NCBI GenBank assembly: GCA_965248355.1
Contig: OZ252098.1
Span: 992,001 to 1,056,000, forward strand
Direction of reading: 5' to 3'
Origin: Candidatus Latescibacterota bacterium
Lineage (GTDB): Bacteria > Latescibacterota > UBA2968 > UBA8231
DNA length: 64,000 bases
Shown: positions 6,346 to 39,606 of the stretch, in pieces
How positions within the stretch are numbered: the first letter of the stretch is position 1
How the letters are laid out: each line of letters starts with the position of its first letter
Made by a program: the position numbers and the translations under genes
The notes under the pieces: model-generated
What the model was told of the DNA's origin: nothing
The model's database searches: none
The model's input: only the letters and a program-made list of their open reading frames with translations

Positions 6346-6353
6346 TTGTCGGT

Positions 6354-7540: not shown

Positions 7541-7543
7541 CCG

Positions 7544-11367: not shown

Positions 11368-11370
11368 AAC

Positions 11371-13257: not shown

Positions 13258-13362
13258 CCCGGATGGGGGCGGCCCGTTATCTTCGCCCTGGTCTTCATCT
13301 GAAATCTCTAACCGTTGCTTTTCCAATAGCTTAGCCACAATCCAGGGCACGCCGACAGACCC

Positions 13363-15949: not shown

Positions 15950-16714
15950 ATGTGCGCATCCCAAATCGGGGCTCAGCTCTACACCGTGCGCGACTTCCTG
16001 AAGACGCCGGACGGCATCCGGGACAGCTTCGGGCGAGTGGCGGAGATGGGGTACGAGGCCGTGCAGTGCTCGGGCCTCGGCCCGATCGATGCGGCGGAGC
16101 TGAGAGCCCTCGCCGACGAAGCCGGTCTGAAGATCGCGGCCACCCACATCGACTTCGACCGCATCCGCCGGGAGCCCCAGGCGGTGATCGAGGAGCACCA
16201 GCTCTGGGGTTGCCGCCACGTGGCCATCGGCGGCCTGCCCGGGGAGTACCGCCACGCCGAAGGATTTGCGCGTTTCGCCCGGGAGGCTTCAATCCTGGTG
16301 CGGCCGCTGATCGACGCCGGCCTGACCTTCAGCTACCACAACCACAGCTTCGAGCTCGAGCGTTTCGGGGAGCGGACGGGCCTGCAGATCCTGGCCGAGG
16401 AGAGCGACCCGGACACGTTTTCCTTCGAGGTCGACACCTACTGGATCCAGCACGGAGGCGGCAACCCGGTCACCTGGATCGAGCGCCTGAGGGACCGCAT
16501 GCACGTCGTTCACCTGAAGGATCTGGCCATGAAGGGCGGCGACCAGCGTTTCGCTGAAGTGGGAGAGGGCAATCTGGAATGGCCCGCCATCCTCGCCGCC
16601 TGCCGCGCCACCGCGATCCAGTGGTACCTGATCGAGCAGGACCGGTGCGACGGCAATCCCTTCGACAGCCTGAAGGTCAGCCTCGACAACCTGCGGGCCA
16701 TGGGCCTGCACTAG
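15950..16714 (+). CDS. Sugar phosphate isomerase/epimerase (xylose isomerase-like TIM barrel)
   Basis: GAQLYTVRD, YHNHSFE, EVDTYW, HLKD, EVGEG, IEQD. Confidence 0.88.
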   Translation: MCASQIGAQLYTVRDFLKTPDGIRDSFGRVAEMGYEAVQCSGLGPIDAAELRALADEAGLKIAATHIDFDRIRREPQAVIEEHQLWGCRHVAIGGLPGEYRHAEGFARFAREASILVRPLIDAGLTFSYHNHSFELERFGERTGLQILAEESDPDTFSFEVDTYWIQHGGGNPVTWIERLRDRMHVVHLKDLAMKGGDQRFAEVGEGNLEWPAILAACRATAIQWYLIEQDRCDGNPFDSLKVSLDNLRAMGLH

Positions 16715-17945: not shown

Positions 17946-17949
17946 TAGA

Positions 17950-19155: not shown

Positions 19156-19187
19156 ACCACACCACAAGAAGGTCAGGAGCGTGTCGA

Positions 19188-19958
19188 ATTCTGAAGTCTT
19201 TCGACCTGGACGGCCGGATCGTGGCCGTCACCGGCGCCGGCCGGGGGATCGGCCGCACCATCGCCCTGGACGCGGTGCGTGCCGGCGCCCGCGTCGCCGT
19301 GGGCAGTCGGACGGTCAGCGAGTTGGAGAGCCTCAAAGGACGCATCGAGGCCATGGGAGGGGAGTGCTTCGTCCAGGTTCTCGACGTGACCGACGTCGCC
19401 TCTATCGAGGCCTTCTTCGAGGCCGTGGACGACCACTACGAGGGCCTCCATGTCCTGGTCAACAACGCCGGGTACAACAAGCTGGGGAAGATCCTGGACT
19501 ACGACGAGGCTCTCTACGACCTGATCGTCGACACGAATCTGAAGAACGTGTTCTTCTGCAGCCAGGCGGCCGCGAAGCGGATGATCGCCAGGAACATCCG
19601 CGGCAGCATCGTCAACATCTCGTCCCAGGCGGGCGTGGTGGGGGCACCGGAGCGCGGGCCCTATTCGGGAGCCAAAGGCGGGGTCAACAACCTGACCCGG
19701 ACGGCGGCCGCCGAGTGGGCGGAGCACGGAATCCGGGTCAACGCCGTGGCCCCCACGGTGACCCGGTCGCCTCTGGCTCAGAGGGCCATGGAAGACAGCC
19801 AGGCCTTTGCCGACGCCGTGAAGACCAAGAACCTGCTGCGCGGCGACCTGGCCGAGCCGGAGGAGATCTCGGCTCCCGTGATCTTCCTGGCCTCCGATGC
19901 TGCCAGCATGATCACCGGCCACGTCCTCGTGGTCGACGGGGGGTGGACCATCGTCTGA
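19188..19958 (+). CDS. SDR family NAD(P)-dependent oxidoreductase (start codon ambiguous)
   Basis: TGAGRGIG, NNAG, NISS, YSGAK, IRVNAVAP, VDGGW. Confidence 0.92.
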   Translation: MLKSFDLDGRIVAVTGAGRGIGRTIALDAVRAGARVAVGSRTVSELESLKGRIEAMGGECFVQVLDVTDVASIEAFFEAVDDHYEGLHVLVNNAGYNKLGKILDYDEALYDLIVDTNLKNVFFCSQAAAKRMIARNIRGSIVNISSQAGVVGAPERGPYSGAKGGVNNLTRTAAAEWAEHGIRVNAVAPTVTRSPLAQRAMEDSQAFADAVKTKNLLRGDLAEPEEISAPVIFLASDAASMITGHVLVVDGGWTIV

Positions 19959-19999
19959 GGCAGGGTCCAGGCGACGTCGAGCCTGCTCTCCGCCGGACG

Positions 20000-21145
20000 T
20001 CACGGCCGCTCTACTCTCCCAGGTGCGGTCCTCCGCAATCCCTCGCTCTGCCAGCCGCGGCGGTCGTCCAGCATCCCGTCCAGGTCGCGAAGGGCGGAGG
20101 CTACGGCGGCCCGGGGTTCTCGGGCCAAGTCGGCCAGGAGTTCCACGAGTCCGGCCGCGTCCGCCACGGAAATCGCCTCCGGCCGCAGCCCATCCCCGCC
20201 GTGGTTGTGGTAGTTCTCGAGAGGCAGGGCTACCGCTCCCGCGGTGATACCGGCGCGGCACAAGGCCGTCGCTTCGCAGGTCCCACCGTCCATCAGCCGC
20301 CTCTGGTACCGGAATCCGGGCCGCTTCCTCCGCAGTCCTTCGGCCGCCGCGGCCAGGGCTGCGGTGACGGAAGCGTCGAAGACCCAGCGCCGGTCACCGA
20401 CGCGGATGACGGGGCCTTGGCCGAGGGGAGCGCCGGCGCGGCAGGAGGAGCATTCGATGTTGACGTAGAGGGCGCCGGGGTCGAGATGCCCGCCGTCCGC
20501 GGCGGCGAGCATCCCGCCGAAGCCGGTCTCCTCGGCCCGGGTCAGCAGAACGCCGATCCCGTTCCCGTCGGTGTCGTCGGCGCGCAGGAGTTCGAGGACC
20601 GAAAGAGCCACGGCCGCACCGGCCAGATCATCGCAGGCGCGGCCCCGAAGCCTCCGTCCGGACACCTCGAAGCCGGGCAGGTCCCAGGTGGCGAAGGTCC
20701 CTCCTGCCTCGGCCGCGGGAGCCGGGCCGTCCAGGCGCACCCGAAAGGCGGGCCGTGTTCCGGCGTCGCCCGGGACTCCGTCCTCCAGAAAGGCCATGAC
20801 CCGGCCGCTGGCGATCGGCTCGCGGGACTCGTGGCCGTAAGCGAGCACGCGGGCCCCCCGGGTCAACTCGGTTGGAATGCCGCCCAGGGAATGAAAGAAC
20901 CAGTCGCCGCCGTCCCGAGCTGCCAGGGACAGCCCGGGATGGTCGAGGTGAGCGGTGAGGACGATCCCTGGCGGCTCCTTGCCAAGGCGCAGATGGAGGT
21001 TTCCGAAAGGGTCGGCCAGGCAGATCAGGTCGGGCCGCTCTTCGACGAATCGCCGAATCTCCGAGAGGACCAGGTGCTCGTGAAAGGGCGCGGTGGGAAT
21101 GGGGAGGAACCGCCGCGCCATGTGCAGATAGAGATCGGTGTTCAA
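20000..21145 (-). CDS. Cytoplasmic M20/M28/M42-clan zinc metallopeptidase
   Basis: AHLDHPG, RACDDLAG, RAEETG, NIEC, GGTCEA, NYHN: metal ligands intact; no signal peptide. Confidence 0.82.
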   Translation of the reverse strand: MNTDLYLHMARRFLPIPTAPFHEHLVLSEIRRFVEERPDLICLADPFGNLHLRLGKEPPGIVLTAHLDHPGLSLAARDGGDWFFHSLGGIPTELTRGARVLAYGHESREPIASGRVMAFLEDGVPGDAGTRPAFRVRLDGPAPAAEAGGTFATWDLPGFEVSGRRLRGRACDDLAGAAVALSVLELLRADDTDGNGIGVLLTRAEETGFGGMLAAADGGHLDPGALYVNIECSSCRAGAPLGQGPVIRVGDRRWVFDASVTAALAAAAEGLRRKRPGFRYQRRLMDGGTCEATALCRAGITAGAVALPLENYHNHGGDGLRPEAISVADAAGLVELLADLAREPRAAVASALRDLDGMLDDRRGWQSEGLRRTAPGRVERP

Positions 21146-21213
21146 GGGGCTCGCCTTCCGCGGAGGAGAACTGGTTCGAAAGGGTATCCGGCGGCGGTCC
21201 GGGGTCAAGCGGA

Positions 21214-21243
21214 TTGCTCCCGGGGAATCGCGTCGACTACCTT
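21214..21243 (+). promoter_or_regulatory. Putative promoter of first OPT-like paralog
   Basis: TTGCTC-18 bp-TACCTT; conserved with the copy at 23591. Confidence 0.5.
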
Positions 21244-21278
21244 GAGACGCTCCTGGCGGTCAGGAGGCCCGAGGCCGA

Positions 21279-23435
21279 GTGAGAAGAGGGATTCCACAGG
21301 AGTACAGCGACCATCTGGCCACGCGCCGGGAGCGCGTGCTGGGAGGGAGCGGCGAGCGCCTCTCCTTCCGCGCCTTCTGGGTCGGCGGCTTCCTGGCGTT
21401 CTTCCTGGCCGTGGGCGCCCCCTACGGCAACATGATCATCCGCGGGTCCTACATGGCCCTCGACTTCAGCACCCCCGGGGCCATCTTCCTGTTCCTCTTC
21501 CTGATCGGTCTTCTCAACTGCGCTTTCAAGCTCGCCCGTCAACCTTCCGTGGCCATCGGCCTCGCCGGCTCGGCCACGGCGGCGTGGCTGGTGGTCTACG
21601 GGCCGGCCATCACCGACCTCGACTTCTACTCTCCGGGTCTGATGCTGGCCACCTTCCTGGTGCTGACCACGTGGCTCAACCTGCCCGTGGTGCTCCGCGG
21701 CGGAAGCCTGGCCCTGAACCGCTCGGAGCTGGTGCTGGTCTACGCCATGCTGCTCATCGTCTCGGCCTTGTGCACCATGGGCCTGGGCGAGCAGATCCTG
21801 CCCGTCATCACGGCGATCTTCTACTTCGCCTCACCGGAGAACCAGTGGACGGAGAAGCTCTTTCCCCATCTGCCGTCGCGGGCCATGGTCGACGACGGCA
21901 CGGACAGCCGGCTGTTCTACGAGGGACTGTCCGGTCCGGAGGACGTGATACCGTACGCGTCCTGGGTGGAGCCCCTTCTGTGGTGGGGGATCTTTCTGCT
22001 GGCCCTGTACGTGATGATGGTCTCGGTGGCGGTGATTCTGCGCCGCCAGTGGATGGAGCGGGAGCGACTGGCCTACCCGATCGCGCAGGTGGGCCTGTCC
22101 ATGATCCGCTCAGAGCACCCCGACCAGGCGGTCAACGGGTTCTTCAAGCAGCCGGTCATGTGGATGGGGGCGGCCCTGCCCCTTGTCGTCGGCAGCCTGA
22201 AGGCCCTGAACCGCTACTACTCCGCAGTGCCGGTCCCGCCTACGACATGGTCCCTGCCCTTCCTGGGCTACCAGACCCTGCAGCTGACGATCAGCTTCGC
22301 CATGCTCGGGTTCTCCTACTTCATCAACGCCAACATCGCCGCCGGCATCTGGTTCTTCCACCTGTTCTCGAAGGTGGAGAAGCACGCGCTTCTGTTCACG
22401 GGGCTGCAGTCGACCCAAAAAATCACCTTCGGCGTCTCCGACTACCCCTTCCTCGGCTACCAGGGGGTGGGAGCGCTGTTGGCCATGGTGGTCGTCGGCC
22501 TGTGGGTGGGCCGCGAGCACTATTGGCGGGTGCTGCTCAAGGCCGTCGGCCGCGCCCCCGAGGTCAGGGACGACGACGAGATCCTCTCCTACCGGAGCGC
22601 CGTGGCCGGCGGCGCGGGCGGCACTGCCGTCATGGCGTGGTGGCTGTGGTTCATGGGGACTCCCCTGTGGGTGGCCCTGGTGTTCGTCGTCCTGGCCATT
22701 CTGATCTTCATCGGCATCACCCGGATCGTGACCGAGGCCGGCCTGGCGGCCATCCGCGCGCCGATGATCGCAAGCGAGCTGGTGGTCCAGGGGATGGGGT
22801 CCTCCCTGGTTGGCCCCGCGGGGGTGATGAACCTCTCGCTGACCTACATCTGGGCTGCCGACATCCGCGTCTTCGTCATGGCCACGTCCTCCAACGCGCT
22901 GAAGATGATCGAGGAGATGGAGCCCCGGAACCGCCGCATCGTGTTCTGGGCCATGATCGCCGCCATGTTCATCGGGGCCGCCGGGTCCTTGTGGATGATC
23001 TTCCACATGGCCTACCGCCACGGGGGCATCAACCTGGAGAGCTGGTTCTTCCAGGGGCTGCCCCGGACCGCGTACGACGCCGCCGTGCGCAACATCGAGC
23101 CCCAGGGGGCCTACTGGCCGGGGCTGGGCTTCTTCGGCGGAGGCATCGGCGCCATGGTGGCCATGATGTGGCTGCGCCAGCGCCTGCCCTGCTGGCCCGT
23201 CCACCCCATCGGCTTCCCCATAGGCGCCAACAGCATGATGAACTACGTCTGGTTCAACGTCTTCGTGGCGTGGATCGTCAAACGCACGGTGCTGCGCTAC
23301 GGGGGTGCCAGCGCCTACCACGGCAGCCAGCACTTCTTTCTGGGACTGATCGCCGGCCAGGTCCTGTGCAACGGCTTGTGGCTGGTGATCGACTACTTCA
23401 CCGGCAAGGTGGGCAACTCCATCTTCTGGGTATGA
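21279..23435 (+). CDS. Polytopic membrane protein, OPT-superfamily-like (probably DUF6785/DUF6784 type), paralog 1
   Basis: 718 aa, many hydrophobic helices; RRQWMERERLAYP, TRIVTEAG, WPVHPIG, RYGG..Y...FFLGLIAG. Confidence 0.8.
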   Translation: MRRGIPQEYSDHLATRRERVLGGSGERLSFRAFWVGGFLAFFLAVGAPYGNMIIRGSYMALDFSTPGAIFLFLFLIGLLNCAFKLARQPSVAIGLAGSATAAWLVVYGPAITDLDFYSPGLMLATFLVLTTWLNLPVVLRGGSLALNRSELVLVYAMLLIVSALCTMGLGEQILPVITAIFYFASPENQWTEKLFPHLPSRAMVDDGTDSRLFYEGLSGPEDVIPYASWVEPLLWWGIFLLALYVMMVSVAVILRRQWMERERLAYPIAQVGLSMIRSEHPDQAVNGFFKQPVMWMGAALPLVVGSLKALNRYYSAVPVPPTTWSLPFLGYQTLQLTISFAMLGFSYFINANIAAGIWFFHLFSKVEKHALLFTGLQSTQKITFGVSDYPFLGYQGVGALLAMVVVGLWVGREHYWRVLLKAVGRAPEVRDDDEILSYRSAVAGGAGGTAVMAWWLWFMGTPLWVALVFVVLAILIFIGITRIVTEAGLAAIRAPMIASELVVQGMGSSLVGPAGVMNLSLTYIWAADIRVFVMATSSNALKMIEEMEPRNRRIVFWAMIAAMFIGAAGSLWMIFHMAYRHGGINLESWFFQGLPRTAYDAAVRNIEPQGAYWPGLGFFGGGIGAMVAMMWLRQRLPCWPVHPIGFPIGANSMMNYVWFNVFVAWIVKRTVLRYGGASAYHGSQHFFLGLIAGQVLCNGLWLVIDYFTGKVGNSIFWV

Positions 23436-23590
23436 TGACCAGCCGCGGTCGAGCGCCATCGAGGTACGGCCGTCGGGGCCGGGCACCACCTGAGGGTTGC
23501 GGGACATGGCGCAATCCGGGTTCCGTCGGGCCCTCACGCGGGCACCGATGTCACCAGGGCTATCCGGTCGACGCCGCCGGGCCGGGTGAA

Positions 23591-23620
23591 TTGCACTGGG
23601 AGAACCGCGGCGACTACCTT
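23591..23620 (+). promoter_or_regulatory. Putative promoter of second OPT-like paralog
   Basis: TTGCAC-18 bp-TACCTT followed by GAG-CGCT, as upstream of paralog 1. Confidence 0.5.
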
Positions 23621-23658
23621 GAGCCGCTCTCCTGCGTGGTACGGAGGCCAGGGACGAG

Positions 23659-25815
23659 TTGAAGAGAGGGATACCCCAGCAGTACGAGGACCATCTCTCC
23701 GCGCGCCTCGAGCGCATGCTGGGCGGGAGCGGCGAGCGCCTCTCCTTCCGTGCCTTCTGGATCGGCGGCTTCCTCTCCTTCTTCCTGGCCGTGGGCGCCC
23801 CCTACGGCAACATGATCATCCGGGGCTCCTTCATGGCCCTCGACTTCAGCACCCCCGGGGCCATCTTCCTGTTCCTGTTCCTCATCGGTCTTCTCAACAG
23901 CGCCTTCAAGCTCGCCCGGCGGCCTCCCGTGGCCCTCGGTCTCGCCGCCTCGTCCACGGCGGCGTGGCTGGTGGTCTACAGGCCGGCCATCACCGACTTC
24001 GACCTCTACTCCCCCGGTCTGATGATGGCCACCTTCCTGGTGGTGACCACCTGGCTCAACCTGCCCGTGGTGCTCCGCGGCGGCAGCCTGGCCCTGAACC
24101 GCTCGGAGCTGGTCCTGGTCTACGCCATGCTGGTCATCGTCTCGGCCCTGTGCACCATGGGCCTGACCGAGCAGATCCTGCCCATCATCACGGCCATTTT
24201 CTACTTCGCCTCGCCGGGGAACCAGTGGGCCGAGAAGCTCTTCCCGCACCTGCCGGAGCGGGTGATGGTCGACGACGGCACGGACAGCCGCCAGTTCTAC
24301 GAGGGCCTCTCCGGTCCGGAGGAGACGGTTCCCTATGGGGCCTGGGTGGAGCCGCTCGTGTGGTGGGGGATCTTCCTGCTGGCCCTGTACGTGATGATGG
24401 TCTCGGTAGCGGTGATTCTGCGCCGCCAGTGGATGGAGCGGGAGCGCCTGGCCTACCCGATCGCGCAGGTGGGCCTGTCCATGATCCGCTCCGAGTACCC
24501 CGACCGGGCGGTCAACGGGTTCTTCAAGCAGCCGGTCATGTGGCTGGGGGCGGCCCTGCCCCTGGTCACCGGCAGCCTGAGGGGCCTGAGCTTCTATGAG
24601 GCGGTCGTGCCCACGACGCGTCTGGAGTGGCATCTCCCCTTCATCGGCCGCCAGACCCTGCATCTGAGCGTCAACTTCGCCGTCCTCGGGTTCTCCTACT
24701 TCATCAACGCCAACATCGCCGCCGGCATCTGGTTCTTCCATCTCCTCTCGACTGCGGAAAAGCAGTTGCTCATCCTCACCGGGCTGCAGTCGTCCCAGAA
24801 GATCGGTCTCGGCGTCTCCGACTACCCCTTCCTCGGGTACCAGGGGGTGGGGGCGCTGCTGGCCATGGTGGTGGTCGGCCTGTGGGTGGGCCGCGAGCAC
24901 TACTGGCGGGTCCTGCGCAAGGCCGTCGGCCGGGCCCCCGAAGTCCGCGACGACGACGAGATCCTCTCCTACCGGGGCGCCGTGGCCGGGGCCCTGGGAG
25001 GCACCGCCGTCATGACGGCCTGGCTGTGGTACATGGGGACCCCCTTGTGGGTAGCCCTGCTCTTTCTGCTCGTGGCGGTCCTGATCTTCATCGGAATCAC
25101 GCGGATCGTGACCGAGGCCGGCCTGTCGGTCGTCCGCGGGCCGATGATCGCCGGCGACCTCGTGGTCCAGGGAGTCGGTTCCTCCCTGATCGGCCCCGCG
25201 GGGGTGATGAACCTCGCCTTGGCCCACGTCTGGGCCGCCGACATCCGTGTCTTCGTCATGGGCACGGCCTCCAACGCCCTGAAGATGATCGAGGAGATGG
25301 AGCCCCGGAACCGCCGCACCGTGTTCTGGTCCATGATCGCCGCCCTCTTCATCGGCGCCGCTGGCTCCATGTGGATGATCTTCCACATGGCCTATCTCCA
25401 CGGGGCCATCAACCTGAACGGCTGGTTTTTCCAGGGGCTGCCTAGGTACGCCTACGATGCGGCCCTGCGCAACATGGAGCCCCAGGGGACGTACTGGCCC
25501 GGGCTGGGCTTCTTCGGCGGCGGGGCCGGCGCCATGGTCACCCTCATGTGGCTGCGCCAGCGCCTGCCCTGGTGGCCCGTCCATCCCATCGGTCTATCCA
25601 TCGCCGCCACGCCCATGATGAACCGCCTCTGGTTCAACGTCTTCCTGGCCTGGGCGGTCAAGCGAGCCGTCCTGCGGTACGGCGGCGCCACCGGCTACCA
25701 GAGGAGCCAGCCCTTTTTTCTCGGGCTGATCAGCGGCCAGGTCCTGTGCAGTGGAGGCTGGCTGGTGATCGACTACTTCACCGGCAGGGTGGGCAACTAC
25801 CTTTACGAGATATGA
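23659..25815 (+). CDS. Polytopic membrane protein, OPT-superfamily-like, paralog 2 (tandem duplicate)
   Basis: 718 aa, colinear with 21279-23435; stop overlaps the ATG of the next gene (ATGA). Confidence 0.8.
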   Translation: MKRGIPQQYEDHLSARLERMLGGSGERLSFRAFWIGGFLSFFLAVGAPYGNMIIRGSFMALDFSTPGAIFLFLFLIGLLNSAFKLARRPPVALGLAASSTAAWLVVYRPAITDFDLYSPGLMMATFLVVTTWLNLPVVLRGGSLALNRSELVLVYAMLVIVSALCTMGLTEQILPIITAIFYFASPGNQWAEKLFPHLPERVMVDDGTDSRQFYEGLSGPEETVPYGAWVEPLVWWGIFLLALYVMMVSVAVILRRQWMERERLAYPIAQVGLSMIRSEYPDRAVNGFFKQPVMWLGAALPLVTGSLRGLSFYEAVVPTTRLEWHLPFIGRQTLHLSVNFAVLGFSYFINANIAAGIWFFHLLSTAEKQLLILTGLQSSQKIGLGVSDYPFLGYQGVGALLAMVVVGLWVGREHYWRVLRKAVGRAPEVRDDDEILSYRGAVAGALGGTAVMTAWLWYMGTPLWVALLFLLVAVLIFIGITRIVTEAGLSVVRGPMIAGDLVVQGVGSSLIGPAGVMNLALAHVWAADIRVFVMGTASNALKMIEEMEPRNRRTVFWSMIAALFIGAAGSMWMIFHMAYLHGAINLNGWFFQGLPRYAYDAALRNMEPQGTYWPGLGFFGGGAGAMVTLMWLRQRLPWWPVHPIGLSIAATPMMNRLWFNVFLAWAVKRAVLRYGGATGYQRSQPFFLGLISGQVLCSGGWLVIDYFTGRVGNYLYEI

Positions 25816-28800
25816 CGGGACCCGGCTCCAGATTCCTTGTTGCGGCCATGGCCTGGCTGCTGCTGACAGCCCCGGCCTCTGCGGACGGCCCCGACTTGTG
25901 GGCTGTCGCCGATGAGGGGGAGCGTCTGCGGGCGAGCGTGGAGTACCTGTCCACGGTCGGCTCCCGCATCAGCGGACACGAGGGCGCCCAGCGGGCCTCG
26001 GACTGGATCGAGCGGCAGCTGTCGACGCTGGGGTTGGGCCCGGTGCACCGAGAGTCGTTCCAGATCACCGTGCCGGTGGAGTTGGGCGGGCGCAGCCGCC
26101 TGCAGGTCCTCGAGACCGGCGAGGAGCTCGACATCTACGGGCTGTGGCCGAACGGCCCGCGAACGACGACCACCCCGCCCGGAGGCACGGAAGGCCTGCT
26201 CACCTGGGCCGGGGGCGGCGAGTACGCCGACTTCGAGGGGCGGCCGCTGCAGGGCCGCGTGGTGCTGATGGAGTTCAACACCTGGGACCGCTGGGTCCGG
26301 CTGGCGGCCCTCGGGGCCCGGGCCGTGATCTTCATCGAGCCCGAAGAGACCTCCTACCCGCAGACCGAGGACAAGAGCCTCATGGTGCCGGTGGACGTGC
26401 CGCGGTTCTGGATCGACGCAGAGGCGGGCCGGCGGCTTCAGCGGAGATTGCAGGGCGGAGACGAGATCGGCGTCCGCCTGCACAGCCGGATGGACTGGCT
26501 CGAGCGGCCCTGCTCCAACCTCTGGGTCGAGATCAGCGGCGCCGATACGGACCTGGCCGGGCAGCGGATCGTCGTTCAGAGCTACTTCGACGGGACCTCC
26601 ATCGCGCCCTCCCTGGCGCCCTCGGCCGAGGTCTCCAGCGGCGCGGCTGCGATGCTGGAGCTGGCCCGGTACCTGCGGGACCATCCGCCCGCCCGGACGG
26701 TGGTTCTCCTGCTAACGGGCTCCCACTTCCAGGACCGGGCGGGGATCGTCGACTTCCTTGAGCGTCACACCCGCAAGTCCGACTACTACGCTCCTCTCAC
26801 AGACTCGATGGCCGTCGATCTCTTCCTCGGTCTCGACCTGTCCACCAAGACGGATCAGGTGGCCATCTGGAACAACACATCCAGCTTCGATCTCAAGCGG
26901 TTCTACGTCCCCTTCGGGCGGCGGTACACCAGGTACGCCGAGGAGGCGGCCGTCGAACTCGGACGGGCCGGCGAGCCATTGCTGTTGAACGGGATCAGTC
27001 CCATCCGCGGAATGGACTGGTCCACCTTCGTCCCCGACGGCGTCCGCGTCGACGCCCGCATGGCCCTGCGCGCCGGCCAGGTCGCCCTCTCCTTCGTCAC
27101 CGCTCACGACGCCCGCTTTCCCGTGGCCACCCCCCTCGACACGCCCGAGCGCATGAATCTGGACAACCTCCGGAGTCAGTCGCGCTTCCTCAACCGGGTA
27201 CTCTCCCGGTCCTTCGACGACCCGGACCTGTTCACCGGACTCGAGGACTTCGATCCCGTGCTCAAGGACGAGCTGCGCACGCACACCGTTCGGGTGCGGG
27301 GCTTTCCGCGCCGCAGCCAGATCCCCGACCGGCCGGTGGCCGACGCCCTGGTGATGGTGGGGCGGTGGACGCACAAGGGCGTGAACACGAGCCGCGCGTA
27401 CCTCACCGGCGAGCTGGGCGTCGCCACCGTGTCGGGACTGGTCGTCGGGGCCACCTCGGTGGTGGCCCATGTCCTCGACCGGGAGACGGGAGAAGTCGTC
27501 TACGCGCCGGACCTGAGCGAGCGCGCCCAGAAGCACCACGGCAAGCCGCTCGCGAGCGGCCGCATGAACTGGAGCATCCGCTGGAACAAGGACAGCAAGC
27601 CCATCGTCGTGTTCCCGAGCATCCAGAGGACCCTCTTCGGGCTGACCCATCCCAACCAGCTGATCGGGCTGGCCTCCCTGAAGATGATCGACAGCGGCGG
27701 CATCGCGCCTCGCCAGTTCGGGTACGCCTTCGGCCACACCATGAGCAGCAACCTCTGCGTCGTCTTCGCGCCCCAGGAGGCGGCCGCCGAGGATCCCCGC
27801 CTGAAGATGCTCTTCGGGGACATGCTGCTCATCAACAGCCCCGGGGGTACGTCGGAGAAGGAGGCCAAGGGCACCGGCTACGACCTGGCGGTGGACGACC
27901 TGCTGCCCTCCGAGCTCTTCGCCCTGCGGGACACCTGGAGGCTCAACGACGCCCGTCTGGCCACGATGCGCTCCCACGCCATTGAGAACCAGCGAATCAG
28001 CCGGTTGCACGAGGCGGGCCGGCGGTTCCTGGCCTCCGCCGAGAAAGCGCTCGAGGAGGGCCGCTGGCGCGACTACGTGGCCGAGGTCCGGTCGGGCCTC
28101 GGGGTGACCCTGCGCGCCTATCCCCAGGTGAAGGGAACCCTCAACGACGTGATCAAGGGCATCGTCTTCTTCCTGGCCCTGGTCATGCCCACGGCCTTCT
28201 TCGGCGAGCGCCTGCTCTTCGCGGCGGCCGACATCCGCTGGCAGCTCGGGGGCTTCGCCCTTCTGCTCCTGATCGTGTGGACGCTGATCTCCCAGGTCCA
28301 TCCGGCCTTCGACATCGCCCATCCCCTGATCATCCTGCTGGCCTTCTTCATCATGGTCATGGCCGTCTTCGTGATGGCCATGGTCTCGAGCCGGTTCAAC
28401 CGGTTCCTCAAGGAGTACCAGGCCGAGAAGGCGAAGGTCCACCAGACCGACATCAGCCGGGTCAGCGCCACCTACGCCGCTTTCATGCTCGGCATCTCGA
28501 ACATGCGCAGGCGCAGGCTGCGCACCGGACTGACCCTGCTCACCCTGACCTTGCTCACCTTCACGGTCCTGTCCTTCACCTCCTTCCGGCCGGAGATGTG
28601 GTATTTCGTCTTTCCCCTCCGCCACGAGGGATCGTACACGGGGGCCCTGATCCGGGACCGCGGCTGGAGCTCTCTGTCGGAGACCACCCTCGAGTACGCC
28701 CGCTCCCACTTCGAGGAGCATGGCCAGGTGGTCCCGCGGAACTGGTACATCACCTACGACGACGAGGAGAAGAAGTACACGGAGATCCGGCGGGACAGCC

Positions 28801-30263
28801 TCATCGTGCGGGCTACCGGCCTGCTCGGGGTGAGCTCCCGGGAGCAGCGGGTGACCGGGCTGGCCTCGGCCCTTACGGCGGGGAGATGGTTCCAGGACGA
28901 TCACGAATCCACCTGCCTGCTCTCGGACGGCATGGCCGAGGGGCTGGGAATCGGTCCCGGAGATGTGGGCCGGGCCCAGGTCCAGGTCTTCGGCCAGCGG
29001 CTGACCGTGGCCGGGGTCTTCTCGTCCGAGGCCTTCGACGAGGTTCGCGATCTCGACGACGAGCCCCTGAGTCCGGCGGACTTCCAGCTCTCGAGCATGC
29101 AGGCCCTGGGTCCGGTGGAGGGGCCGCAGATGCAGGTGCAGGAGGAGGAGGAGACCTACGAGGTCAGGCCCTTCGTCCACCTCGACCCGGCGAACGTGCT
29201 CATCCTGCCCTACGAGACCCTGAAGGTCTCCTTCGGCGACCTGCGCTCCGTGGCCATCCGGTTCGACGAGGGCGCCCCGGCCCGGGCCCTGATCGAGGAC
29301 TTCCTGCAGCGCATCTCGGGCACGATCTTCGCCGGCCTGCCGGACGAAGAGGGCCGCATCGACGTCGTGTCGTACACCTCTCTGGGCGGCACCTCGGTCG
29401 AGGGTCTGGCGGCCCTGACCGTGCCCATGCTGATCGCGGCCCTCATCGTCCTCAACACGATGATGGGCGCCGTGTACGAGCGCTTCCGGGAGATCGGCAT
29501 CTACTCCTCGGTGGGGCTGGCGCCCATGCACATCGCCCTGCTGTTCATCGCCGAGGCCTGCGTGTACGCGGTCATGGGGGTGACCCTGGGCTACCTGATC
29601 GGCCAGATCCTCGGAAGGTCGCTGGTGCAGTTCGACCTGCTGGGCGGCATGAACCTGAACTACTCCTCCTATGCCGCCATTCTCTCGGCCTGCATGGTCA
29701 TGGGCGTGGTGCTCCTGTCCACCATCTATCCGGCCCGCGTCGCCTCCCGGTCCGCCGTTCCCGACACGGTTCGGCGGTGGCGGCCGCCGCCGCCCGACGG
29801 CGATCGCTGGGCCTTCGACTTTCCCTTCATGGTGGGACAGAGCGAGGTAGTGGGGATCTGCGGGTTCCTGGCCAACTTCCTCAGCGCCTACAGCGAGGAG
29901 TCGATCGGCGACTTCTACGCCGACAAGGTGCGGATCACCACCGAGGAGACGCGCGCGGGCCGGGAGTACGCCGTGCAGCTGCTGCTGTGGCTGGCCCCCT
30001 TCGACATGGGCGTGAGCCAGTTCCTGCAGATCGAGCTGGCGCCCACCTCCACACCCGGCGTCTGCGACGTGCAGATCTACATCCACCGCCTGAGCGGCCA
30101 GGACACCTACTGGCAACGCGTCAACCGACGCTTCGTCAACCACCTGCGCAAGGAGTTCCTGATCTGGCATACCCTCGACACGGAGTCCAAGGCCTTCCAC
30201 GACCAGAGCGCGAGAGAGCGGATGGCGGCTGAGGCCACGACAGCAGCGGAGGCCACGACCTAA
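25812..30263 (+). CDS. Large fusion: signal peptide, PA/M28 peptidase-fold ectodomain (degenerate), extra TM helices, FtsX/MacB-like permease
   Basis: ASA|D signal; SRISGHEG..ASDWI, PA-like GRVVLMEF; ISNMRRRRLRTGLTL, AGRWF, LNTMMGAVYERFREIGIYSSVG..FIAEA. Confidence 0.82.
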   Translation: MTGPGSRFLVAAMAWLLLTAPASADGPDLWAVADEGERLRASVEYLSTVGSRISGHEGAQRASDWIERQLSTLGLGPVHRESFQITVPVELGGRSRLQVLETGEELDIYGLWPNGPRTTTTPPGGTEGLLTWAGGGEYADFEGRPLQGRVVLMEFNTWDRWVRLAALGARAVIFIEPEETSYPQTEDKSLMVPVDVPRFWIDAEAGRRLQRRLQGGDEIGVRLHSRMDWLERPCSNLWVEISGADTDLAGQRIVVQSYFDGTSIAPSLAPSAEVSSGAAAMLELARYLRDHPPARTVVLLLTGSHFQDRAGIVDFLERHTRKSDYYAPLTDSMAVDLFLGLDLSTKTDQVAIWNNTSSFDLKRFYVPFGRRYTRYAEEAAVELGRAGEPLLLNGISPIRGMDWSTFVPDGVRVDARMALRAGQVALSFVTAHDARFPVATPLDTPERMNLDNLRSQSRFLNRVLSRSFDDPDLFTGLEDFDPVLKDELRTHTVRVRGFPRRSQIPDRPVADALVMVGRWTHKGVNTSRAYLTGELGVATVSGLVVGATSVVAHVLDRETGEVVYAPDLSERAQKHHGKPLASGRMNWSIRWNKDSKPIVVFPSIQRTLFGLTHPNQLIGLASLKMIDSGGIAPRQFGYAFGHTMSSNLCVVFAPQEAAAEDPRLKMLFGDMLLINSPGGTSEKEAKGTGYDLAVDDLLPSELFALRDTWRLNDARLATMRSHAIENQRISRLHEAGRRFLASAEKALEEGRWRDYVAEVRSGLGVTLRAYPQVKGTLNDVIKGIVFFLALVMPTAFFGERLLFAAADIRWQLGGFALLLLIVWTLISQVHPAFDIAHPLIILLAFFIMVMAVFVMAMVSSRFNRFLKEYQAEKAKVHQTDISRVSATYAAFMLGISNMRRRRLRTGLTLLTLTLLTFTVLSFTSFRPEMWYFVFPLRHEGSYTGALIRDRGWSSLSETTLEYARSHFEEHGQVVPRNWYITYDDEEKKYTEIRRDSLIVRATGLLGVSSREQRVTGLASALTAGRWFQDDHESTCLLSDGMAEGLGIGPGDVGRAQVQVFGQRLTVAGVFSSEAFDEVRDLDDEPLSPADFQLSSMQALGPVEGPQMQVQEEEETYEVRPFVHLDPANVLILPYETLKVSFGDLRSVAIRFDEGAPARALIEDFLQRISGTIFAGLPDEEGRIDVVSYTSLGGTSVEGLAALTVPMLIAALIVLNTMMGAVYERFREIGIYSSVGLAPMHIALLFIAEACVYAVMGVTLGYLIGQILGRSLVQFDLLGGMNLNYSSYAAILSACMVMGVVLLSTIYPARVASRSAVPDTVRRWRPPPPDGDRWAFDFPFMVGQSEVVGICGFLANFLSAYSEESIGDFYADKVRITTEETRAGREYAVQLLLWLAPFDMGVSQFLQIELAPTSTPGVCDVQIYIHRLSGQDTYWQRVNRRFVNHLRKEFLIWHTLDTESKAFHDQSARERMAAEATTAAEATT

Positions 30264-30267
30264 GGCC

Positions 30268-32964
30268 ATGGCCGAGAACGGAAAGCAGAGCCTGCGCCAG
30301 CGGCTGCGCAGGAGCCAGTGGCAGGAGGTGGAGGAGTACCGCGCCCTGCTGGAGCCCGCCGAGCAGTTCGAGAGCGGCTTCACCATGCGCACCATCATCG
30401 GCGTCATCTTCATCTCCCTGGTCATGACCCCGGGGGAGATGTACCTGGGCCTGGTCACCGGCGGGGGCATCGGCGCCGCGGCCCAGTGGGTGACGGTGAT
30501 CCTCTTCCTGGAGGTGGCCAAGCGGTCCTTCACCTCCCTGCGCCGCCAGGAGATCTACCTGCTGGTGTACGTGGCCTCGGCCCTGGTGGCCCGGGAGGAG
30601 GGGGCCTTCCTCGACCTGCTCTTCCGCCAGTACTTCGTGCGCTCCGCCGAGGCCGAGCAGTTCGGCATCTCCAAGCTGCTGCCGTACTGGTACGTGCCCC
30701 ATCCCGAGTCGCCCGCCCTGGCGGCGCGCACCTTCCTGCACCGCGACTGGCTGTGGCCCATCGCCCTGCTGATCATGGGAACCATCGTCGGCCGCATAAG
30801 CTGGTTCACCTCCGGGTACCTCCTCTTCCGCCTGACCTCGGACCGCGAGCGCCTGCCCTTTCCCACGGCCCCCATGTCGGCCCTCTCGGCCATGGCCCTG
30901 GCCGAGGAGAGCGGCGGGGAGAAGGAGACCTGGAAGTGGCCCGTGTTCTCCCTGGGAGGGGTCATGGGCGCCCTCTTCGGCATGATCTACGTGGGCATCC
31001 CTACCCTCACCGAGGTCCTGCAGGGAAAGAAGATCACCCTCATCCCGATCCCCTTCTGGGACCTCACGCCGTACTTCGGCAACCTGCTGCCAGCCGCGCC
31101 CATAGGGATCACCCTCCACCTCGGGATCATCTTCGGCGGCCTCCTGGCCCCGTTCTGGGGGATCGTCGGGTCCAGCGCCGGCGTGATCATGCACACCGCG
31201 GTGAGCCCCATCCTGCACGCCCACGGCCTGCTGCCGAGCTGGTCCCTGGGCATGGACCTGATCGGCACGTCCATCGTCACCGGGATCGACTTCTGGAGAG
31301 CCTTCTCCATCGGCATCACCATCGCCGTCACTATCATCAGCTTCTACCAGCTCTTCGCTACCGCCCGTCAGCGGCGGCTGTCAACGCGCGACGAGTTCCT
31401 CGGGGAGCGGCGCGAGTACCCGCGGACCTGCGTCCACGACGGCTGCAACGCCCCCTCCCAGGTGCGCGGCTACTGCCTCAAGCACCTCGGCCGGGGGGAC
31501 TTCAACCTCTGGGTCTGCGTCGTCCTCTTCGCCATGGCCGCCCTCTACCCCATCGTGCTCGCCAAAACCCTCTTCCCGGCCCTGGTGACGACCGGCCTGC
31601 TCGTCGTGTTCTTCGGCATCGCCTTCGTGTACGCGCCCATCATGTCCTTCGTCTCGGCCCGTCTCGACGGCCTCATCGGCCGCGAGGTGTCGATCCCGTA
31701 CATCAACGAGGCCATCATCTTCCTCACCGGGTACCGGGGCGTCGACATCTGGTTCGTGCCCTTCCCGACCCGCAACTACGGAGGCCACGCCGAGGGCTTC
31801 CGCGTCGTCGAGCTGACGGGCATGCGCTTCACCAGCCTGCTGCAGGCGGAGCTGTTCATGCTGCCCATCGTCTTCGGCGTGAGCCTCATGTACTGGAGCT
31901 TCCTGTGGCGCCTCGGCCCGATACCGTCCGAGAGCTATCCCTACGCGCAGCTCATGTGGCCGCTGCAGGCCTTCAACCAGGCCTTCTACTACTCCAGCAC
32001 GATGTACAACAAGATGTGGCGGGCGGGAGAGGAGGTGGACGGGCGCCGCGTCGACGGGGGGGAGGTGGTCTGGAGCCCATCCAACCTGCAGGACCGGGAA
32101 TGGTGGTACTGGCGGGTGCGGGTCACGGACGACGTGGAGGTGCCGGACGCGGAGAGGCGTGATTACGGCCCGTGGTCGAAGACGGGGTACTTCTACACGA
32201 ACTTCGGTGACGGCACACCGCCGTCAGGCGTGCCGGAGCGCGTCCTCGACGCCCTCGCCGACGTGGCGCGGAGAGCGGAGATGAAGGCTCACCCGTCTCG
32301 AGCCCCGCCTGAACCGGCAGCCGCCGAGCCCAAGGCCGAGTTGCTCTGGCCCGCCCCGGGCGAGGTCGTGGCCACGCCGAATCCCAACTTCCACGCCCGC
32401 GTGCCGGCGGTGCCGGACTCGCTCGAGCTCTACTTCGAGGTGGACAGGCTGCCCACCTTCGACGGGGAGTGGCTCCAGCGCTCCACGGACTGGCCCCTCA
32501 TGTTCCTGGCCTTGTGGCGTGACGTGCGCTACACGGGCGACCGGCGCGACAACGACGGCGACGGCCTCGTCGACGAGGAGCTCTTCAACCTGGCCGACGA
32601 CGATGGCGACGGGGTGGCCGACGAGGACTTCCGTCACCCCCTCGACGGCTGGAAGTGGCCCATCATGGTCTTCGGCGCCGGCTTCGGATTGGTCATGTAC
32701 TTCGGCCTCTCCTTCCTCGGACTGCCCGTCTTCCTGATCTGGGGGTACGTGCAGAGCGTCCTGGGTATCCCCACCAGTCTCCTGCCCCAGATCTTCGGGG
32801 CCCTCCTCGCCCGGTTCTACTTCTGGAAGCGCTACGGCAGGCAGGAATGGCGCCGCTACGCCATGGTGCTGACCGTCGGCTTCGGTGTGGGCATGTCCCT
32901 CATCGGCATGTTCTGCGCCGCCCTGGCCATGGTCAGCAAGGCGGTCTCGGCCCTGCAGTACTGA
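30268..32964 (+). CDS. OPT-like peptide-transporter membrane protein with Zn-finger, FN3-like and acidic inserts
   Basis: FESGFTMRTIIG..MYLGLVTG, ERLPFPTA, many TM helices; inserts CVHDGC..RGYCLKH, YWRVRV..GPWS, DNDGDGLVDEE. Confidence 0.78.
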   Translation: MAENGKQSLRQRLRRSQWQEVEEYRALLEPAEQFESGFTMRTIIGVIFISLVMTPGEMYLGLVTGGGIGAAAQWVTVILFLEVAKRSFTSLRRQEIYLLVYVASALVAREEGAFLDLLFRQYFVRSAEAEQFGISKLLPYWYVPHPESPALAARTFLHRDWLWPIALLIMGTIVGRISWFTSGYLLFRLTSDRERLPFPTAPMSALSAMALAEESGGEKETWKWPVFSLGGVMGALFGMIYVGIPTLTEVLQGKKITLIPIPFWDLTPYFGNLLPAAPIGITLHLGIIFGGLLAPFWGIVGSSAGVIMHTAVSPILHAHGLLPSWSLGMDLIGTSIVTGIDFWRAFSIGITIAVTIISFYQLFATARQRRLSTRDEFLGERREYPRTCVHDGCNAPSQVRGYCLKHLGRGDFNLWVCVVLFAMAALYPIVLAKTLFPALVTTGLLVVFFGIAFVYAPIMSFVSARLDGLIGREVSIPYINEAIIFLTGYRGVDIWFVPFPTRNYGGHAEGFRVVELTGMRFTSLLQAELFMLPIVFGVSLMYWSFLWRLGPIPSESYPYAQLMWPLQAFNQAFYYSSTMYNKMWRAGEEVDGRRVDGGEVVWSPSNLQDREWWYWRVRVTDDVEVPDAERRDYGPWSKTGYFYTNFGDGTPPSGVPERVLDALADVARRAEMKAHPSRAPPEPAAAEPKAELLWPAPGEVVATPNPNFHARVPAVPDSLELYFEVDRLPTFDGEWLQRSTDWPLMFLALWRDVRYTGDRRDNDGDGLVDEELFNLADDDGDGVADEDFRHPLDGWKWPIMVFGAGFGLVMYFGLSFLGLPVFLIWGYVQSVLGIPTSLLPQIFGALLARFYFWKRYGRQEWRRYAMVLTVGFGVGMSLIGMFCAALAMVSKAVSALQY

Positions 32965-32971
32965 CAGCCCC

Positions 32972-34078
32972 TCAGGGGTGCTCTCCGGGACTCGCCATGC
33001 CATTGGCCCGCGGTCCCTTTTCCCGGCGCGAGCGGCGGCGCCGCTGCAACATGGTCGGAAGTCCGACGGCCAGGTAGGTGAGGTTGGCCAGGGCGTGGAC
33101 GGTCGTGGCGCAGGCCATGGCCGCCGCCAGGGGCACGGCGAAGAGCACGTGGAGGGAGTATCCGTAGAAGTAGTGGTATGGCCCCGTGCCGGCCGGCGCA
33201 GGGATCACCACCCCGATGGACGAGACGGCCATGACGACGAGGGACTCCGCCGCCCCCAGGACCCAGGGCGGGCGGTCGAAGCCGAAGGCCACGTACGACT
33301 GGTAGATGATCATGATGTACGCCAGGTTCAGCAGACAGGAGCTGACCAGGATCTCGAGGCAGGCGGAGGCGGAGCGGAGGGCCAGGAGTCCCTCGACGAA
33401 CCTTTCGAGCATGCCGCCCGCGCTCGAGGCCAGTCTCGGGGACACGCGGCCCAGCAACAGCTCAAGCGTGGAAACTCCGCGGTTCCCGAAGGCGTAGGCG
33501 AAGGCCATGCCGCCCACCACGAGAACGCAGACGGCGAGGACGCAGAGCGTGACCTGGTCCAGGGAAAGGCTCAGGGTGAGCCCCCAGAGGGTTGTCTCCC
33601 AGGGAAAGAGAGTGGCCATGCGTCCCGGCACGAGGACCAGGGAGAGAGCCAGCAGGGAGGCGAGGCACAGCAGGTCCAGCGCGCGCTCCACGACCACCGT
33701 GCCGAGGACCGCGCTGACGCTGGCGTCGCGGCGCCACTTGAGGCTCAGCGCCCGCGCCGCTTCTCCGGCCCGGGGAAAGACCAGGTTGGCGCTGTAGCAG
33801 ATGCCCAGGGCCAGAGTGGCGTCGACCACGGTCACCGCGGGCGCCACCGGGCGCAGCAAGACCACCCAGCGCCACCCGCGCAGCAGGAGGGTGAGAACGG
33901 TGGTGCCCGCCATGGCGGCCATCCACCACGGCGAGACCGCCCGCGCCGCCGTCCATAGGGACGCCCCGTCGATCCCCTGAAAGGCCCAGTAGAGGAAGAG
34001 GGCCATCAGGCCGAAGCCGACCGCGTATCGGGTGAGGCCCTTCACGCGGCGGCCCACCTCGAAGGGGCCCCGGTCCAC
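32972..34078 (-). CDS. Lysylphosphatidylglycerol synthase TM / flippase-like (UPF0104) membrane protein
   Basis: RGWRW..LL, NLVFPRAGEAAR, GTVVVERALD, IPAPAGTGPYH. Confidence 0.85.
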   Translation of the reverse strand: MDRGPFEVGRRVKGLTRYAVGFGLMALFLYWAFQGIDGASLWTAARAVSPWWMAAMAGTTVLTLLLRGWRWVVLLRPVAPAVTVVDATLALGICYSANLVFPRAGEAARALSLKWRRDASVSAVLGTVVVERALDLLCLASLLALSLVLVPGRMATLFPWETTLWGLTLSLSLDQVTLCVLAVCVLVVGGMAFAYAFGNRGVSTLELLLGRVSPRLASSAGGMLERFVEGLLALRSASACLEILVSSCLLNLAYIMIIYQSYVAFGFDRPPWVLGAAESLVVMAVSSIGVVIPAPAGTGPYHYFYGYSLHVLFAVPLAAAMACATTVHALANLTYLAVGLPTMLQRRRRSRREKGPRANGMASPGEHP

Positions 34079-34085
34079 AGGCGGA

Positions 34086-34469
34086 TCAGGTGTAGACCTG
34101 GTCGGGGTCGAAGAGGCGCTCGTCCACCACTTCCCAGCGCTGCTGTTCGCCGTTCCAACGCCTGTAGTAGCAGGAGTAGTATCCTCGGAAACAGGCGGCT
34201 ACTTCCTGATCGACGCGAATCTCGAGGGAGTTGCCGTCGCAGTTGAGACGGATCTCGCGCACCCTCTGCACGTGTCCGGAGTCGACGCCCTTCTTCTGCA
34301 CCCGTTCCTTCGACCGCCGGTACACGTGCACCAGGCCCGTTTCGAGGGTGAGCTCCAGGGCCTCCCGGTTCAGGAAGCAGAGCACCAGGAGGCGTCCCGT
34401 TTCCCCATCGGTGACCGCCGCGGGCACCAGACCATCGGATCCGAACTCGACGTCGCCGGTGAGACTCAT
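34086..34469 (-). CDS. hisI: Phosphoribosyl-AMP cyclohydrolase (stand-alone, divergent motifs)
   Basis: DGLVPA, NREAL..TLETG, KG..SGHVQ, NCDGNSL, AC..G..SC. Confidence 0.8.
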   Translation of the reverse strand: MSLTGDVEFGSDGLVPAAVTDGETGRLLVLCFLNREALELTLETGLVHVYRRSKERVQKKGVDSGHVQRVREIRLNCDGNSLEIRVDQEVAACFRGYYSCYYRRWNGEQQRWEVVDERLFDPDQVYT

Positions 34470-34520
34470 GGCCACCTCATGGGGAGGGGATCTTCCCTTT
34501 TCTCAAGGAGACCGTCAACG

Positions 34521-39605: not shown

Positions 39606-39606
39606 G

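Follow-up and report, generated by a model that had tools for sequence, protein, structure and literature searches.

What does a MacB/FtsX-type permease do in an operon that also encodes membrane proteins resembling oligopeptide transporters (OPTs) and that holds no ATPase gene? This question is raised by four genes in a stretch of 64,000 nucleotides from a Candidatus Latescibacterota bacterium (GCA_965248355.1, contig OZ252098.1, positions 992,001 to 1,056,000 of the forward strand), which we call the window and which sits in a single-contig genome of 5.50 Mb. The genes encode two 718-aa proteins of the DUF6785/DUF6784 families, a 1483-aa protein that we call P3, and an 898-aa protein that we call P4. 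On balance, we lean towards the reading that P3 is an accessory resembling type VII ATP-binding cassette (ABC) transporters that is coupled to OPT-fold carriers (DUF6785/DUF6784 and P4), and that these form the membrane part of a conserved envelope machine of Latescibacterota. The system probably serves nutrient uptake, likely of peptides. Covalent fusions of P3 with DUF6785/DUF6784 proteins are the strongest evidence that the families belong together. The features of the locus are as follows, with the basis of each assignment in brackets.

21279-23435, plus strand: DUF6785/DUF6784 copy 1, 718 aa, GTG start, membrane protein of predicted OPT/Yellow Stripe-like (YSL) fold (Pfam, AlphaFold2 (AF2) model, Foldseek, VIA-align)
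23659-25815, plus strand: DUF6785/DUF6784 copy 2, 718 aa, TTG start, tandem paralogue (Pfam, identity to copy 1)
25812-30263, plus strand: P3, 1483 aa, with a signal-peptide-like N-terminus, PA/M28-like ectodomain, three transmembrane (TM) helices, MacB/FtsX permease module and cytoplasmic C-terminal domain (Pfam, 5nik match, hydropathy scan)
25884-28136, plus strand: P3 ectodomain, about residues 25-775, PA and M28-like head with a remodelled metal site (profile of 29 homologues)
28524-29750, plus strand: P3 MacB/FtsX module, about residues 905-1313, comprising TM1, the periplasmic MacB_PCD and TM2-TM4 (Pfam, MacB match, hydropathy)
29739-30260, plus strand: P3 C-terminal cytoplasmic domain, 174 aa, conserved, of no known family (no Pfam, PDB or Atlas match)
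30268-32964, plus strand: P4, 898 aa, ATG start, apparently a divergent OPT-superfamily protein that has a Cys/His loop, presumably cytoplasmic, and a large insert, probably periplasmic (profile intermediates)
31429-31485, plus strand: C388/C393/C403/H406 loop of P4, a putative zinc ribbon (invariant in 41 homologues)
31915-32652, plus strand: P4 insert, about residues 550-795, a beta-rich domain with Asp-rich DxDxDG-type repeats, probably periplasmic (AF2 strands)
21235-21246, plus strand: 12-nt leader motif of copy 1, with a second exact copy at 23612-23623 ahead of copy 2
20000-21208, minus strand: M42-family aminopeptidase gene, divergent from the operon (Pfam Peptidase_M42, E 9e-16)

The four co-oriented genes for large membrane proteins that an earlier note had read from this sequence are all real, with frames at these coordinates in the list of open reading frames (ORFs). 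The listed frame for P3 runs from 25548 to 30263 (+), and an internal ATG at 25812 opens the 1483-aa protein. GC content at third codon positions is 0.89-0.94 in the four frames, as expected of real genes in a region of ~67% GC. The tight spacing of the last three genes described in that note is also present: the ATG of P3 overlaps the TGA stop of the second 718-aa gene in the ATGA at 25812 (gagatATGAcgg), and 4 nt separate P3 from P4 (TAA-ggcc-ATG before 30268). Rfam gave no family within 19000-34500, and a promoter and terminator scan of the locus gave a result at chance level.

Linkage of P3 with the DUF6785 and P4 families

Fifteen protein clusters, 56-93% identical to one another, carry a full-length P3 followed by a full-length DUF6785/DUF6784 protein in one chain of ~2,100 residues. 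In two genomes (G063 and G078) these P3::DUF6785 fusions are single ORFs of 2123 and 2280 codons. At the two fusion loci examined there was no P4 nearby and no adjacent ATPase.

The families are also linked when they are encoded separately. We fetched 69 loci around P4 homologues, mostly orthologous loci of one phylum; the relatives are labelled Latescibacterota and, in some cases, as metagenome-assembled genomes of Gemmatimonadota. Of the 66 informative loci, 61 have P3 directly upstream of P4; where the flanking sequence is long enough (55 loci), 48 have an adjacent DUF6785 gene. Since the fetched loci are mostly orthologous, we examined paralogous loci as well. The genome studied here has four P3-P4 pairs, two of them with DUF6785, which in one case stands between P3 and P4. 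In two class-level relatives, 10 of 11 P3 genes directly adjoin a same-strand P4 or DUF6785 gene. Among 81 sampled genomes of the phylum, P4 was found in 67, P3 in 68 and DUF6785 in 67, and each of the three was found in none of 13 genomes of one family (f9). The three families, whose co-occurrence the earlier note had left to a survey, are thus linked and sometimes fused, and we found nothing of the kind that the note itself had named as refuting its proposal.

Conserved order could partly reflect shared ancestry, since the 69 loci are mostly orthologous and come from one phylum. The genes would then be neighbours by descent only, encoding independent transporters that have no functional coupling. 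We regard this as very improbable: the pairing recurs in paralogous copies within genomes, it survives in genomes of 1-2.6 Mb that have 1-3 DUF6785 matches among those listed, and in 15 diverged clusters it has become fixed through fusion of the genes.

Several other arrangements of these genes were observed. The fourth copy of the module in this genome (L030, G000:C1:5111000-5130999) consists of P3, DUF6785 and a short P4 and is flanked by Mutator-family transposase genes, one at L030:3498-4769 and the other at 17308-18579, and by an IS3-type pair; this copy may be a composite mobile unit. Proteins with FG-GAP/UnbV_ASPIC domains recur beside DUF6785 genes (L012, L015) and beside the fused P3::DUF6785 gene, which at one locus is followed by three consecutive genes of this type (L118:1954-7697, minus strand). 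They also occur in a variant operon without P3 in L093, L099 and L100 (about 5256-14862), which encodes a short MacB-type permease (395 aa), a LolD-type ATPase, an FG-GAP/UnbV_ASPIC/TPR protein (903 aa), P4 and DUF6785. We counted these three loci as one event because the genomes are closely related. We considered and rejected the idea that this operon holds a split P3, its FtsX domain being only 27% identical to that of P3 over 132 residues. In L093, the first 340 residues encoded by the ATPase ORF resemble an artefact of out-of-frame translation.

Folds and families of the encoded proteins

Both 718-aa proteins exceed the Pfam gathering scores for DUF6785 (PF20581, cut-off 25) and DUF6784 (PF20580, cut-off 26.4). 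The first (P0001) scored 366.8 and 95.6 bits (E 2e-109 and 2e-27) and the second (P0002) 368.5 and 100.3 bits. An AF2 model of the DUF6785 protein, built with 38 sequences that include the paralogues from this genome, had a pLDDT of 88.3 and a pTM of 0.88. In Foldseek, its only significant PDB matches were to barley Yellow Stripe 1, HvYS1 (7wsr/7wst, E 1.6e-7 and 4.4e-7). VIA-align placed the model on HvYS1 with a Z of 23.9 and a root-mean-square deviation of 4.0 Å (558 of 601 residues), and the next chain had a Z of 5.7. The model thus supports an OPT/Yellow Stripe fold for the 718-aa proteins, which the earlier note had called OPT-like from short motifs; membership of the OPT family by sequence was not found. 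The motifs themselves are present in the translations of the 718-aa and 898-aa proteins: SFRAF and GFTMRT near the N-terminus, RERLAYP and RERLPFP, and LRYGG and KRYG near the C-terminus. PDB sequence searches with single proteins gave nothing useful, and BLAST of the 718-aa against the 898-aa protein gave nothing significant.

The idea of the 718-aa proteins as a conserved heteromeric pair did not survive. The copies are 81% identical over 716 residues, and two copies are found only in the three closest relatives (L046, L047, L095), a single copy being present at the other related loci. From this distribution we take the pair to be a recent tandem duplication. Alignment of the leaders indicated that the duplication takes in ~75 nt of leader, including the 12-nt motif, which has only two exact copies in the 5.5-Mb genome.

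P4 was connected to the OPT superfamily through intermediate sequences. With a profile of the P4 family (41 homologues) we reached 1047 relatives among 1.8 billion cluster representatives. We sampled 22 of the 150 listed (profile E 1e-48 to 1e-197), and 11 of these match Pfam OPT above its cut-off, several across nearly the whole model (P0377, for instance, over model positions 12-618 of 623). One ORF from a class-level relative (G013:C2:2099588-2101252) matches both the P4 profile (6e-131) and OPT (2.6e-9). In whole-genome scans, ORFs of 800-1073 aa, a length that fits the P4 family, also matched OPT weakly in their C-terminal part. Because half of the sampled profile relatives match OPT and one ORF matches both, P4 is, as judged from sequence, probably a divergent member of the OPT superfamily, and the earlier note's description of it as OPT-like can stand. 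A search of the ESM Atlas with P4 returned only its own clusters.

Two elements distinguish P4. The first is the invariant Cys/His loop, which in 13 of the 41 homologues gave weak matches to Zf_WRKY19. The second is an insert of ~245 residues with strands in the AF2 model (pLDDT 70-87 in blocks) and invariant Asp residues at 761-787. The probable periplasmic position of this insert comes from a count of helices that starts at the Cys/His loop, itself presumably cytoplasmic. Many P4 homologues have a PDZ domain within the insert, and more distant ones have propeller repeats. In relatives with a PDZ-insert P4 (L053:13184-19948; L054-L061, L065 and others), P4 is followed by ~7 kb of co-oriented genes for DnaJ-domain, CesT/YbjN-like, PspA/IM30, amine oxidase, spermidine synthase-like and DUF350 proteins.

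P3 starts with a signal-peptide-like N-terminus, which is followed by an ectodomain of ~750 residues, three hydrophobic segments, the MacB/FtsX unit and the C-terminal domain. Pfam matched FtsX at 45.2 bits (cut-off 25.5) and MacB_PCD at 30.9 (cut-off 27), and a hydropathy scan marked hydrophobic segments at 907-925 and 1196-1305. These domains stand in the order of a type VII permease, with TM1, the periplasmic domain and then TM2-4. In the structure database P3 matched MacB (5nik, E 2.3e-6), with YtrF, LolC and FtsX chains also matching. The loop between TM2 and TM3 (ERFREIG...VGLAP) is invariant in 29 sequences and aligns with a segment of MacB that we take to be the coupling helix on which the ATPase docks. 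For the C-terminal domain we found no Pfam match, no PDB match below E 0.79 and no ESM Atlas match; conserved motifs are present in it.

The head of P3 is related to aminopeptidases. Pfam Peptidase_M28 matched P3 below the gathering score (16.4-17.6 bits vs 21.3) and over model positions 1-64 of 193 only; the P3 paralogues scored 23-43 bits. A profile of 29 ectodomains matched the YwaD aminopeptidase (6hc6, E 3e-12), 2ek8 (1.4e-10), nicalin (1.4e-3) and transferrin receptor (~0.1). In the alignment with YwaD, AHYDS becomes AYYDG, GANDN becomes PaAEs and GAEEL becomes GaHfq. The first His is replaced by Tyr, the Asp of the GA-x-D motif by Glu and the Glu-Glu by His-Phe, and these replacements are conserved in the family. 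The canonical M28 metal ligands and catalytic Glu, roles that we assume for the YwaD residues in this alignment, are absent from the P3 head. All 29 sequences, those of the paralogues among them, have D227, E240 and H272. Since the canonical residues are replaced, "pseudo-peptidase" is a fair label for a head that nevertheless keeps a conserved polar site. The earlier description of the large protein as a PA/M28-like domain joined to an FtsX/MacB permease is borne out, with the catalytic residues replaced.

The ATPase and the rival explanations

The earlier note had also stated that no ATPase lies in or beside the cluster. This holds in cis for this genome and its close relatives; it does not hold for other families, which carry a MacB/LolD-type ATPase beside the orthologous operon. 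None of the 66 ABC_tran matches of the genome is in the window, the nearest being at genome positions 712920 and 1205353. Apart from the four P3 genes and a gene at 3185733, the FtsX-domain matches of the genome are no more than 4.6 kb from an ABC match. About 260 kb from the locus, between an SDR gene and uvrB, is a solo MacB/LolD-type ATPase gene (1283488-1284237, minus strand). A search with this ATPase found homologues that are placed beside P3 loci in other families of the phylum. We analyzed 11 such loci, ten chosen for the proximity of the ATPase to P3 and L124 in addition, a selection from which no frequency can be derived. At six of them, in genomes of other families, an ATPase gene is followed after a gap of 0.5-1.8 kb by DUF6785-P3-P4, all on the same strand. 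In the other five, which come from small genomes, DUF6785-P3-P4 stands first, and a small FtsX-like ORF and an ATPase come after it. In a maximum-likelihood tree the solo ATPase joined the six upstream ATPases and one that lies 16 kb upstream (support 96/96), and the downstream ATPases grouped with the ATPase of this genome that is next to a small FtsX gene. We conclude that an ATPase most likely belongs to the system and that in this family it is unlinked from the operon.

The model in the earlier note amounts to an ATP-independent heteromeric importer. P3 would then be no more than a membrane-tethered receptor or scaffold, like the binding protein of TRAP or TTT secondary transporters, and the OPT-fold subunits would supply all the energy by proton coupling. 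None of the four P3 loci of this genome has an ABC ATPase within 10 kb, nor do 63 of the 69 related loci (6 have one), the two P3::DUF6785 fusion loci examined do without an adjacent ATPase or P4, and the conserved 174-aa cytoplasmic domain of P3 could occupy the place of an ATPase. All of this would suit such an importer. P3 nevertheless retains the invariant TM2-TM3 loop that aligns with MacB, and ATPases of one clade stand directly upstream of the orthologous operon in six genomes, a clade that has a member in this genome. We know of no FtsX/MacB system that is free of an ATPase. Because other families have the operon-adjacent ATPase and this genome has a solo member of the clade, we do not take an ATP-independent machine to be the most likely reading and consider it unlikely.

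Two other gene sets in this genome touch on this question. L117 (G000:C1:3184105-3187224, minus strand) encodes a protein of 1039 aa in which MacB_PCD matches two stretches and FtsX one domain. No ABC ATPase is encoded close to it, which makes it, besides P3, another type of FtsX gene that lacks an ATPase in this genome. L115 (G000:C1:475582-477972, plus strand) is an orphan adaptor-ATPase pair: a gene for an HlyD-family adaptor precedes one for a MacB-type ATPase, and no permease gene comes next. We considered this HlyD-linked ATPase (at 477208) as the motor of P3 and rejected it: close orthologues are missing in genomes of the same genus and are present in f9, which is without P3.

A second alternative keeps the ATPase and gives up import by P3. 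P3 would belong to a type VII ABC envelope machine that extracts, processes or activates a periplasmic or membrane target through its peptidase-like head, and the OPT-fold proteins would salvage the products or act independently. The peptidase-like subunit EnvC is degenerate, and P3 combines a full MacB module with a degenerate peptidase head. Known type VII systems work by mechanotransmission to periplasmic partners rather than by moving substrates across the membrane, and most DUF6785 genes stand alone. A type VII transporter is coupled with a hydrolase in YbbAP-TesA (PMC12646458). The covalent P3::DUF6785 fusions and the near-obligate adjacency of an OPT-fold gene argue for a joint machine over loose salvage, and the conserved core has no hydrolase with intact catalytic residues. 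We consider this alternative quite improbable.

Several findings weigh against the reading that we favor, in which a type VII-like P3 acts with OPT-fold carriers, besides the ATPase-free loci and the selection of the ATPase-bearing ones given above. Of the DUF6785 genes in this genome, 23 of 26 stand apart from any P3, and the family evidently does not need P3 next to it in order to function; likewise, 5 of the 66 P4 loci lack P3 and one of the 11 P3 genes in the class-level relatives has no OPT-fold neighbor. Pfam OPT matched none of 38 DUF6785 proteins at E <= 0.05, and Pfam gave no direct match to P4, OPT matching none of its 41 close homologues. Alignments with hhalign showed the motifs aligned as expected and were not significant (DUF6785 profile against 11 true OPTs, E 0.23; P4 against OPT, E 0.035; P4 against DUF6785, E 0.084). 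The AF2 model of P4 is poor (pLDDT 51.5, from a shallow alignment of 41 sequences that are >= 66% identical), and with it HvYS1 was the top Foldseek match at a non-significant E of 1e-2 and TM of 0.25-0.34. As for the ATPase, the solo gene is on a long branch and an approximately unbiased test does not reject its pairing with the other paralogue of this genome (p 0.066), and the five downstream ATPases, each accompanied by a small FtsX gene, may be part of a different system.

Evidence from RNA is in favor of the reading, with caveats. Contigs from two metatranscriptome libraries of one study span the junction of the second 718-aa gene with P3 (25554-26418; 25320-26052) and the P3/P4 junction (29851-30506; 30224-30742, both without differences), but such contigs may hold DNA carry-over, and the spanning of two genes by one contig is no proof that they are transcribed together. 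Shorter pieces of the locus are in two libraries of a second study, labelled sponge metagenome. Parts of the locus that have no cover in RNA libraries carry no evidential weight.

Substrate, relation to known systems and meaning

The substrate at this locus is most likely oligopeptides. This is suggested by the M42 aminopeptidase, a homologue of which is encoded directly ahead of the operon and divergently from it in 38 of the 69 related loci, by an M20 peptidase that adjoins the paralogous locus L032, by the PDZ domains in P4 inserts and by the aminopeptidase-shaped head of P3. It is also in line with passages of a review that suggest many prokaryotic OPTs to be peptide carriers on the basis of genome-context analysis (PMC3061005). 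The wider DUF6785 family gives a different picture, and it counts against a peptide substrate. Of 21 DUF6785 loci away from P3, 11 have Pfam families of the sugar, glycan or sugar-acid type within two genes and 3 have peptidases. Examples of such neighbors are PcRGLX, CBM9, GH43/32, GH127, GlcNAc 2-epimerase, MR_MLE, lactonase and BNR. There are 26 DUF6785 copies in this genome, and relatives have up to 68 first-look candidates per genome. DUF6785 looks like a major, unrecognised importer family of the phylum.

Our favored reading would work as follows. The non-catalytic head of P3 and the insert of P4 would bind a periplasmic substrate, here most likely oligopeptides, which P3 would present or gate. 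The OPT-fold proteins (DUF6785/DUF6784 and P4), presumably bound to P3 in the unfused form too, would carry it inward across the inner membrane, coupled to protons as in characterised OPTs, and the neighboring cytoplasmic M42 aminopeptidase would degrade it. A MacB/LolD-type ATPase probably drives the conformational cycle of P3; in this genome it would be supplied from elsewhere, the solo gene at 1283488-1284237 (-) being the candidate. A bolder version is a serious possibility that we nonetheless doubt. An ATP-driven mechanotransmission module of the MacB type, physically coupled or fused to an OPT-fold secondary carrier, would make up a new importer class in which ATP-powered capture or gating in the periplasm feeds a proton-driven pore, and DUF6785 would be the main nutrient-import family of Latescibacterota, with substrates beyond those known for OPTs.

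Compared with OPT/YSL transporters (PF03169, which we take to be TC 2.A.67), the DUF6785 model superposes on HvYS1 and P4 is linked to the family through intermediates. The motif [DE]R[EK]RL-x-[FY]P is shared, as is the N-terminal FT-x-R/T...YLGL stretch in P4. By contrast, identity to HvYS1 is ~11% with no direct Pfam OPT match, P4 has the Cys/His loop and the ~245-residue periplasmic insert, and many of the DUF6785 paralogues in this genome are beside sugar-catabolic genes. DUF6785 and P4 are also tied to a MacB/FtsX protein, a tie of which there is no instance in the OPT literature that we searched. Fungal OPTs fused to proteases are on record in passages of the review cited above (PMC3061005).

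With type VII ABC systems (MacAB-TolC, LolCDE, FtsEX-EnvC, YbbAP-TesA), P3 shares FtsX and MacB_PCD in the canonical order, the conserved TM2-TM3 loop and, in other families, a MacB/LolD-type ATPase beside the operon. P3 also shares an attached periplasmic hydrolase-like element with FtsEX-EnvC. Such an element is likewise a feature of YbbAP-TesA (PMC12646458). P3 differs in that its head is fused and catalytically degenerate, in its three extra TM helices and 174-aa C-terminal domain, in having no ATPase in cis in this genome, and in having an OPT-fold partner that is sometimes covalently fused to it. To our knowledge no type VII system has an OPT-fold carrier as partner, and the literature that we searched held none either. 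Among the PA-domain M28 peptidases (YwaD, 6hc6; 2ek8), YwaD is aligned by the P3 head profile over the PA insert and about as far as the middle of the M28 core. The head differs from these peptidases in its replaced metal and catalytic residues and in ~500 further ectodomain residues that have no sequence match; its profile also matches the non-catalytic M28-like nicalin and, weakly, transferrin receptor. In the TRAP and TTT systems an extracytoplasmic receptor feeds an ion-coupled carrier. The likeness of P3 to these would be one of concept only, there being no relation in sequence or fold, and the P3 receptor would be embedded in the membrane by its MacB module.

The surroundings of the locus hold a separate uptake system. 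As the earlier note had it, no classical solute-binding protein is beside the cluster; the only one nearby is DctP (40092-41309, minus strand), part of a TRAP transporter (DctM, DctP and a TAtT T-component; window 38298-42096, minus strand) that lies 5 kb downstream and adjoins a putative aminopeptidase gene (42097-43362). Upstream of the locus is a DDE_3 transposase gene (window 16579-17940, plus strand), and ORFs with an identical set of Pfam domains at L011:11123-12211 and L022:4666-5754 mark it as a multi-copy insertion sequence.

The locus does not appear to have been characterised before, in agreement with the earlier note. Full-text literature searches for DUF6785, DUF6784, PF20581 and PF20580 yielded no paper, one that joined FtsX, M28, MacB and orphan permease gave none on the system, and a search for Latescibacteria with OPT gave nothing on it among the matches listed.

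Our analysis assigns a fold and a probable role, that of an OPT-type carrier, to two families without a function, DUF6785/DUF6784 and P4. It connects them with a MacB/FtsX-type protein whose peptidase-like head looks dead, a connection that extends to covalent fusion, and we did not find this combination described. For structural work, the P3::DUF6785 fused forms could serve directly as constructs. Should the parts make up one machine, it would be a new link between the ATP-driven and ion-coupled classes of transporters, and it would help explain how substrates are taken up in an uncultured, sponge-associated phylum that is rich in degradative enzymes.

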